This document shows, in pieces, positions 11,313 to 12,127 of a stretch of DNA of 46,955 bases. The notes under the pieces were generated by a model that saw only the letters and a program-made list of their open reading frames with translations, was not told the origin of the DNA and did no database searches. The stretch's first letter is position 1. Every line of letters starts with the position of its first letter. The position numbers and the translations under genes are program-made. The stretch comes from a virus (Duplodnaviria; Heunggongvirae; Uroviricota; Caudoviricetes): IMG/VR virus record IMGVR_UViG_643348547_000013; one strand, given 5' to 3'.

Positions 11313-12127
11313 GTATGGAGCTGATGGTTAAAGCGATGAAAATTCGAGTGGGTAATCCATTGCGAAAACTGGTTCTGATCAAGCTGGCTGATAATGCCAG
11401 CGATCAGGGTGAGTGCTGGCCCAGCTACCAGCATATTGCTGACCAGTGCGAGATTAGCAAACGTTCTGTGATGAATCATATTGCGGCCCTTTGTGAGTCC
11501 GGGCTGGTAAAAAAAGTCACCCGGAAAGGTGAAAAAGGTAACTCAAGTAATATCTATCTCCTTCATCTGGATGGTGCAGGAGATTCACTAGGGGGTAGTG
11601 CAAATAATTCACTATCTGGTGCAGCAAATTCACCAGGTAGTGCAGGAGTTGCACTAGGGGGTAGTGCAGGAGATTCACCCAGAACCAGTCACTCTTTTGA
11701 ACCAGTCAAAGAACCAGTCAATGAACCAATAGCTGTTGGTGCATCTGCTGATGAGTCTGTGCGAGTTCGTTCAAACCGACCGGAATACTCTCCGGAGTTT
11801 GAGCAGGCATGGCTGGCATATCCCAAACGTGCTGGTGGCAATTCAAAATCTGCAGCCTTCAAAGCCTGGAAAGCCCGTTTGAATGAGGGGGTAAACCCCG
11901 AAACCATGCTGGAAGGTGTGAAACGCTATGCGGGCTGGGTATCTGCGATGGGTAACAGCGGCACACAATTTGTGAAACAGGCTGTCACGTTCTTTGGTCC
12001 GGATCGTCATTTCGAAGAATCCTGGGAAGTTCCTGCGGTATCTGCAGCCAGACGTGAGGACCCGTACTTCAAAGCCAGTTACGACAACGTGGACTACAGC
12101 CAGATCCCGGCAGGATTCAGGGGGTGA
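11309..12127 (+). CDS. putative replication initiation protein with N-terminal winged-HTH
   Basis: N-terminal HTH-like region, Gly/Ser/Ala-rich linker encoded by iteron-like repeats, C-terminal domain; position after the CII-like gene. Confidence 0.6.
   Translation: MSMELMVKAMKIRVGNPLRKLVLIKLADNASDQGECWPSYQHIADQCEISKRSVMNHIAALCESGLVKKVTRKGEKGNSSNIYLLHLDGAGDSLGGSANNSLSGAANSPGSAGVALGGSAGDSPRTSHSFEPVKEPVNEPIAVGASADESVRVRSNRPEYSPEFEQAWLAYPKRAGGNSKSAAFKAWKARLNEGVNPETMLEGVKRYAGWVSAMGNSGTQFVKQAVTFFGPDRHFEESWEVPAVSAARREDPYFKASYDNVDYSQIPAGFRG
11574..11680. repeat. iteron-like direct repeats inside the replication gene (candidate ori)
   Basis: Repeated units TGCAGGAGATTCAC and CACTAGGGGGTAGTGCA at 11576-11603 and 11652-11678. 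Confidence 0.45.

Follow-up and report, generated by a model that had tools for sequence, protein, structure and literature searches.

A candidate lambda-style replication origin of five iterons and a conserved direct repeat within the initiator gene of a lambdoid prophage

The DNA analysed here is a stretch of 46,955 nucleotides (nt) from viral record IMGVR_UViG_643348547_000013, referred to as a whole as "the window". It holds a lambdoid prophage in which an array of short repeats lies within the coding sequence of a replication initiator gene (11309..12127, plus strand), and this array, together with the DNA that adjoins it, is considered below as a candidate replication origin. Against Pfam, the 272-residue product of the gene matched HTH_36 (1.8e-11; 44.1 bits, cut-off 25) and DnaD_N (3.6e-05), with B-block_TFIIIC and HTH_20 as the only other matches; the same Pfam scan gave no match to the lambda O family Phage_rep_O (PF04492). 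The profile of PHROG 270, "replication initiation protein", matched residues 3-271 (2.1e-88). The initiator is a member of the HTH_36 / PHROG 270 family of replication initiators. Its gene and the elements within it are laid out as follows (aa, amino acids; bp, base pairs).

11309..12127, plus strand: replication initiator gene, 272 aa, with N-terminal winged helix, linker, C-terminal helical domain and tail
11309..11572, plus strand: N-terminal DNA-binding domain (N-domain), aa 1-88, with 65-84% aa identity in Pseudomonas, Vibrio and Stenotrophomonas phages
11453..11491, plus strand: predicted recognition helix ISKRSVMNHIAAL, aa 49-61, aligning with helix 3 in winged-helix proteins of the GntR/FadR type
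11529..11570, no strand: AT-richer stretch 5′ of the iterons, ~37% GC
11574..11588, no strand: candidate iteron 1, GTGCAGGAGATTCAC, motif match
11598..11612, no strand: candidate iteron 2, GTGCAAATAATTCAC, motif match
11619..11633, no strand: candidate iteron 3, GTGCAGCAAATTCAC, motif match
11640..11654, no strand: candidate iteron 4, GTGCAGGAGTTGCAC, perfect 5-bp arms, match on both strands
11664..11678, no strand: candidate iteron 5, GTGCAGGAGATTCAC, motif match
11682..11691, plus strand: conserved direct repeat 1, GAACCAGTCA, DNA conserved across families regardless of reading frame
11699..11708, plus strand: conserved direct repeat 2, GAACCAGTCA
11711..11720, plus strand: conserved direct repeat 3, GAACCAGTCA, an extra 12-bp unit of polymorphic copy number
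11715..11735, no strand: mosaic joint at which the N-terminal/origin module meets the C-terminal module and blastn matches end or begin
11771..12052, plus strand: C-terminal globular domain, predicted three-helix bundle
12053..12124, plus strand: C-terminal tail REDPYFKASYDNVDYSQIPAGFRG, 24 residues, the last 9 of which are 8/9 identical to the C-terminus of Escherichia coli DnaT

The profile of the N-domain weakly matched winged helices of the GntR/FadR type as well as the DnaD N-domain 2vn2, and ISKRSVMNHIAAL was designated the recognition helix because of this alignment with the GntR/FadR winged helices. Near-identical genes (98-100%) are carried by phages cdtI, SfV and mEp460 and by Stx2a, Stx2c and Stx2k phages including Stx2a_WGPS2, and the N-terminal 89 aa of the ST64B protein are 100% identical to those of the window initiator.

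The original prediction had placed two repeat blocks in this part of the gene, and both are present, TGCAGGAGATTCAC at 11575-11588 and 11665-11678, and CACTAGGGGGTAGTGCA at 11586-11602 and 11652-11668. This description was incomplete, however, as the real unit is a 15-bp dyad that occurs five times. The 105 bases from 11574 to 11678 contain five copies of the imperfect palindrome GTGCA-N5-T(T/G)CAC, starting at 11574, 11598, 11619, 11640 and 11664 with successive spacings of 24, 21, 21 and 24 bp, and Tandem Repeats Finder reported the array as 4.7 copies with a period of ~21-24. Throughout the 46,955 bp of the window, these five dyads are the only sites matching the pattern GTGCANNNNNTKCAC, for which chance would yield a mean of 0.31 matches; the observed count (6) was reached in 0 of 100 dinucleotide-preserving shuffles. 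The repeats are genuine and non-random. Neither the dyad nor the direct repeat GAACCAGTCA clusters elsewhere in the window, the whole-window checks having covered those two motifs only. As predicted earlier, the repeats fall within a Gly/Ser/Ala-rich linker, corresponding to aa 88-124 of the open reading frame (ORF) 11309..12127 and to the peptide DGAGDSLGGSANNSLSGAANSPGSAGVALGGSAGDSP. On the 5′ side of the iterons, the GC fraction falls to 0.367 in the 60-nt composition window 11510-11569, and family-wide, counting from the conserved element, a GC dip spans positions -150 to -105.

Relatives of the locus were drawn from three samples, namely blastn matches in phage records, 120 viral contigs found with a 17-mer from downstream of the iterons, and 80 loci from 80 bacterial species that were picked solely by protein similarity to the N-domain. 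(An earlier locus scan yielded identical N-domains only, and is informative on copy number, not on diversity.) Homologues with a conserved protein but no repeats would have counted against the original prediction, but the opposite was found: every relative examined carries the conserved N-domain followed by 3-8 dyads at the equivalent position. Six distant relatives that were read by eye all showed the N-domain, then 3-8 dyads with a half-site of their own, and then the same DNA element. In the protein-chosen species sample, 65 of the 73 analysable loci contained at least three sites of one of five iteron classes.

Given that the stretch encodes a repetitive linker, the repeats might instead be a by-product of low-complexity Gly/Ser/Ala coding sequence that grew by slippage, with no function at the DNA level. 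Copy number is polymorphic, as slippage would give, with 5, 6, 7 or 8 iterons among genes with identical N-domains (phage cdtI has 8, and 22 additional residues). Each unit nevertheless has dyad symmetry, a property that no peptide repeat calls for, and the linker peptides of relatives are unrelated (GSAGDSP, PMPPKSIA, PVGPEST, PSENISP). Although these peptides differ wholly, the palindromes, their spacing of ~21-24 bp and their position are kept. Moreover, the iteron spacing in relatives ranges over 21-25 bp and includes 22 and 23 bp, so that identical DNA units within one gene are translated in different frames, which already contradicts slippage. With arrays of 3 to 8 copies and units that fall in different reading frames, it is the DNA that is under selection and not the Gly/Ser/Ala linker. 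The half-site also co-varies with the recognition helix, as detailed below, and since position, dyad design, helix co-variation and frame-independence all hold, a purely peptide-level repeat is ruled out; slippage is thereby left as an extremely improbable account of the array.

Over 162 distinct loci, the signature of the recognition helix predicted the class of iteron, as listed here in counts that are descriptive and do not represent independent events, because the classes are post hoc and the loci share ancestry.

Helix RS(V/A)x: GTG(C/A)A-N5-T(G/T)CAC, 96/96 loci
Helix (S/T)AVR: TGCC..GGCA, 28/32 loci
Helix STVR: GTAGGC..GCCTAC, 13/17 loci
Helix STVK: GGGGCA..TGCCCC, 7/10 loci
Helix RTAM: GTGAC..GTCAC, 3/3 loci
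Helix (T/K)TAI: GTGTA..TACAC, 3/3 loci

This co-variation of helix and half-site suggests that the repeat sequence is specific to its cognate initiator. On the same comparative grounds, the dyads, which stand two helical turns apart, form a single module with the winged-helix domain encoded just upstream of them. The dyads might instead be regulatory sites, at which the initiator or another regulator would act through auto-repression, roadblock or handcuffing while the origin lies elsewhere. Dimeric Rep proteins of iteron plasmids, such as RepA, RepE and pi, bind inverted repeats as operators, and protein bound to the dyads, which lie within the early-right operon, could obstruct transcription there. 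Their position is mid-gene, however, and no promoter-like site was found on the plus strand between 7300 and 13300. In addition, N-domain, dyads and conserved element travel as a block while the partner-recruiting half of the gene is swapped, and such block inheritance is what an initiator carried together with its origin would show, lambda, P22 and L being examples. Purely regulatory sites are therefore improbable, although the dyads may have a regulatory side-role.

Directly 3′ of the iterons stand three exact copies of GAACCAGTCA, which were absent from the list of the original prediction. The 12-bp unit GAACCAGTCAAA (encoding EPVK; window 11699-11728) is present in 1-4 copies among otherwise near-identical genes (loci L007-L086), indicating that this element, like the iteron array, gains and loses units. 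Vibrio and Stenotrophomonas phages matched the query in blastn over only ~40-50 bases, at 90-97% identity. Among the protein-selected species loci, CCAGAACCAGTCACTCTTTTGAACCAGTC with at most 6 substitutions was found in 63 of 80, and at least one unit in 77 of 80; usually there were 2-4 units of (A/T)GAA(C/T)CAGTCA, spaced 17, 12 or 14-16 bp. Family-wide, the GC content of the GAACCAGTCA block is 8-15 points under the gene mean, which is a relative dip only.

The codons of this element are frozen. Where it reads R-T-S-H-S-x-E-P-V in the protein-selected species, R was AGA in 52/52, the first S AGT in 52/52, H CAC in 52/52, the second S TCT in 51/51, E GAA in 48/48 and V GTC in 46/47 cases, in contrast with the invariant residues of the N-domain, which use all synonymous codons (motif-selected viral loci). 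The single common variable base of the element (C/T) is non-synonymous. In six loci (L244, L249, L250, L272, L280 and L283) the element is even read in another frame, as H-P-E-P-V-T-L, with a repeat spacing of 15 or 12, and the hosts of element-bearing phages range from 36 to 62% GC. The last iteron starts exactly 17 nt ahead of AGAAYCAGTCA in 93 of 99 class-1 loci, and the element is restricted to the company of the N-domain (110/114 motif-selected loci, the remainder being truncated). Because codons are frozen, the frame is shifted in some relatives and the hosts are GC-diverse, these comparisons identify the GAACCAGTCA block as a DNA-level element that is part of the N-domain/iteron module. 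By analogy, it would be the positional counterpart of the stretch that flanks the iterons of lambdoid origins and is conserved among them.

The block lies exactly at the mosaic joint, and its DNA is near-identical in phages of very different hosts, many Gammaproteobacteria among them, both of which would fit a shared recombination junction at which N- and C-terminal modules are shuffled. A junction leaves unexplained, however, that a 10-bp unit is repeated 2-4 times at spacings of 12, 15 and 17 bp with the unit itself kept, that its distance to the last iteron is fixed, and that synonymous sites are frozen across genomes of 36-62% GC. As regards a signal at the mRNA level, no Rfam family reached threshold and the folding z-score was -1.65. 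We consequently attribute to a junction or mRNA signal a low, though appreciable, probability.

Other candidate roles and partners of the block were set aside. An RNA role found no support in Rfam above threshold, where the one sub-threshold microRNA match was due to the palindromes, and a hairpin was rejected as the region, folded as single-stranded DNA, did no better than shuffles. The product of the 78-aa ORF 11076..11312 was discarded as a binder of the element, since this ORF is missing from all 80 diverse species loci. GAACCAGTCA is not known to fit the consensus of a DnaA box or of an IHF or GATC site; its complement holds CTG, the DnaG start triplet, which we treat as a coincidence. 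A literature search for the 10-mer returned unrelated primers only and no description of the element.

The second half of the gene behaved differently from this N-terminal/origin block. The blastn matches either stop at query positions 407-416 or start at 425-428, and the C-terminal modules joined to the same N-terminal/origin block are of at least 12 unrelated kinds. The gene after the C-module encodes lambda P in four clusters, DnaB in two and an IstB/DnaC-like ATPase in one, and none of these for the type found in the window. The tails of the P-associated modules (e.g. ...NTDWAYGVMP) resemble the lambda O tail. The prediction that neither a helicase nor a loader gene follows the initiator was borne out, as no domain of a helicase, loader or primase turned up when 18 ORFs covering the early-left and early-right regions and that of the integrase were scanned against Pfam, and the following genes are indeed PerC-like (12124..12618) and Dam (12585..13271). 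For the C-module of the window, AlphaFold2 modelled a conserved core as a three-helix bundle (predicted local distance difference test score, pLDDT, 64.7), followed by a disordered tail.

This tail ends in SQIPAGFRG, compared with SQIPPGFRG in DnaT (8/9), and in BLASTP only this 9-residue tail matched. The extreme C-terminal DnaT motif ...SEPDSQIPPGFRG is thus present in the window protein; the DnaT query sequence was identical to chain D of PDB entry 9ZBT. In relative P0065, the tail matched that of DnaT at 13/19 positions (E 8e-07). The window protein has no similarity to the N-domain or linker of DnaT, phmmer of the window protein against PDB did not find DnaT, and hhalign of the globular domain with DnaT gave a probability of 1.4%, which is not significant. 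To judge from these alignments, the window protein shares the DnaT tail motif but appears not to be a DnaT homologue, and the label "primosomal protein I" on some such phage proteins probably stems from this tail match.

The same 24-residue tail also occurs on a C-domain of the lambda O type, in SfIV (L288 2135-3076) and in P0089/P0094. The SfIV initiator gene has GTCA-N5-TGAC repeats of its own; the next gene is again PerC-like, and a loader gene is again lacking. With two kinds of initiator C-domain bearing it, the tail REDPYFKASYDNVDYSQIPAGFRG behaves as a mobile module. In the preprimosome structures 9ZBT and 9ZBU, the C-domain of DnaT was fitted from the crystal structure of residues 84-153, and the route by which DnaT recruits DnaB/DnaC is stated there to be unknown.

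The comparative evidence all agrees with the proposal that origin iterons lie within the coding sequence of the initiator, in the manner of lambda O. We therefore interpret the repeats as iterons of the replication origin of this lambdoid E. coli prophage, situated in its own initiator gene, and assign this reading a probability of about 0.82 based on sequence comparison. Dimers of the N-domain would bind the dyads and build a complex resembling the "O-some" of lambda. The three GAACCAGTCA repeats could then serve as a core for duplex opening or helicase delivery, a role that is proposed because they are relatively GC-poor, lie at a fixed distance from the last iteron and are common to all specificity classes; for unwinding in particular, we consider the odds to be even. 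Since the element occurs only with the N-domain, its binder would most likely be a conserved part of the initiator that acts on one strand.

The variant in the window lacks a P, DnaB or DnaC-like partner and, more speculatively, its C-domain and tail might recruit host DnaB-DnaC directly, through the same partner as the DnaT tail. That the DnaT-like tail recruits the host helicase machinery is possible, but we lean somewhat against it. Broader still, and in our view rather doubtful, is a scheme in which GAAYCAGTCA is a universal origin core across phages of Gammaproteobacteria that is read on one strand like DnaA-trios, with the dyads as the address and with loader-less members using a tail copied from DnaT, by which host DnaB would be loaded in the absence of a phage helicase or loader.

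Several points weigh against the proposed origin and its mechanism. There is no lambda-like AT tract adjoining the iterons in absolute terms, the GC content there being ~43-48%. The recognition helix was assigned from weak profile matches (E 0.009-0.09), and the helix/iteron classes were set after inspecting the data, on loci that are phylogenetically related. The DnaT tail is neither modelled nor described in 9ZBT/9ZBU, where no function is given for it. In the searchable literature, no experiment on binding or origin activity was found for this family, and according to PMC8951638 the replication proteins of Eru phages are as yet unstudied. Literature on SfV, ST64B and iterons likewise yielded nothing on this origin. 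Finally, an insertion sequence (IS) sits upstream in the operon, and the origin copy of this particular prophage may for that reason not fire.

The gene setting is that of a lambdoid early-right operon, with the following order.

7377..8051, minus strand: CI-like repressor
8604..8930 (108 aa) and 8927..9817 (296 aa): IS3-family transposase ORFs
Early-right genes up to the initiator, in order: cII-like (CP76), Ash-family (10247..11083), 78-aa ORF (11076..11312), initiator
After the initiator, in order: PerC-like, Dam, LexA-DNA-binding-domain protein, RusA, KilA-N, DUF968/HNH, antiterminator Q

Compared with phage cdtI, the window has an insertion of ~1.3 kb at 8551-9856 that contains the two overlapping transposase ORFs; its size and ORF lengths fit IS629/IS1203. 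Sited between cro and the replication genes, the insertion divides the cII-like (CP76) gene in two and thus probably disrupts the early-right operon of the prophage. Further differences from cdtI concern the flanking genes. The PerC-family gene (12124-12618), which overlaps the initiator stop codon and carries the RefSeq name yfdN in related E. coli, does not occur in cdtI, where Dam directly follows the initiator; the N-terminal half of this gene showed a weak match to a MarR-like PHROG. The 3′ part of the Ash-family gene (window 10645-11144 versus L001 3033-3836) differs from that of cdtI as well (278 versus 382 aa), while its flanks are 98-99% identical to cdtI, which points to a further mosaic joint just upstream of the replication gene.

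The initiator gene is widespread, with at least 80% of it present in 896 of 5,426 complete E. coli genomes and a partial match in 2,717 of 5,426. Some prophage remnant, such as the cryptic CPS-53 (yfdO), may account for the partial matches, for which the RefSeq neighbour name yfdN was the only check. It is the initiator of Stx2a, Stx2c and Stx2k phages, and a relative is the "O" of phi24B (H123) and Min27. The genes annotated "O" in Min27 and phi24B thus belong to the HTH_36 family and not to lambda O. In Min27 (L207 2501-3169) there are three GGGGCAGGAGCTGCCC dyads, the core deviates slightly (AGAACCTATCAC...GAACCAGTCA), and the initiator is followed by a large gene annotated P, which runs for at least 668 codons before the locus ends. 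Members of the initiator family were also seen on many circular 38-48-kb records filed as plasmids from E. coli and Salmonella, and ten from Arsenophonus nasoniae (H153, H154, H167-H176). These records could represent phage genomes maintained outside the chromosome, or else phage-plasmids dependent on this origin; as clean evidence for plasmids replicating by this initiator they were rejected, being mostly phage-genome-like.

In Stx strains, phage replication drives toxin output, and the "Eru" types are said to be unstudied. The present map provides a concrete location for the putative origin of these phages that can be used for experiments, and the more than 40 natural pairs of recognition helix and iteron lend themselves to a study of winged-helix specificity. 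The DnaT-like tail raises the testable question of how a single phage protein would recruit the host helicase, and may also tell what the unmodelled C-terminal tail of DnaT does.

Among the closest known systems are the Eru6 phages, defined by an Ash/Rha-type gene and then an HTH_36 gene downstream of cI/cro (PMC8951638). The initiator gene of the window is 99.0% identical to that of the Eru6 reference Stx2a_WGPS2 (AP012537), and in both an Ash-domain gene precedes the HTH_36 gene, so that by its sequence the window region is of the Eru6 type. Fagerlund et al. (2022) distinguished the Eru classes, including Eru5 and Eru6, by gene content only, and described no origin, iterons or conserved element (PMC8951638). 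Gene 18 of P22 and gene 18 of phage L likewise encode lambdoid initiators with their own iterons in the coding region, as exchangeable replication modules (PMC8022706). Unlike in the window, the next gene there encodes a helicase of the DnaB type (gene 12); the repeats of L are 11-bp direct repeats, and no shared flanking element was reported for P22 and L.

In iteron plasmids (RepA, RepE, pi, TrfA) and in origins with DnaA boxes and DnaA-trios, arrays of initiator sites adjoin a short repeat at which the strands separate and one of them is contacted by the initiator, and the GAACCAGTCA repeats may by analogy be likened to the latter. Plasmid iterons, however, are direct repeats recognised by monomers and situated outside rep, whereas the window has dyads inside the gene and its universal element is the direct repeat.

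The likeness to the lambda origin in O is that in both cases the origin would lie inside the initiator gene, between a DNA-binding N-domain and a partner-binding C-domain, and comprise multiple iterons, each an imperfect inverted repeat, at intervals of about two helical turns. Additional iterons lengthen the protein linker in both systems, the origin of lambda having 4 iterons and that of Stx phages 933W and P27 having 6, with 13 extra residues in O (PMC7466680). Lambdoid origins also resemble the present family in that the region adjoining the iterons is conserved between phages of different iteron specificity. This likeness draws in part on older comparative work on lambdoid origins, reportedly by Grosschedl and Hobom in 1979 and Moore et al. 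in 1981. The window differs from lambda in its protein family, which is HTH_36/DnaD_N-like and not Phage_rep_O; in its iterons of 15 instead of 19 bp; in its flank, where GAACCAGTCA direct repeats at ~43% GC would form the core in place of the AT tract; and in the want of a P gene or any other helicase or loader gene, combined with a tail that is like that of DnaT, whereas lambda O ends in ...NTDWIYGVDL. In kind, the sequence comparisons nonetheless argue for a lambda-style origin within the initiator gene.

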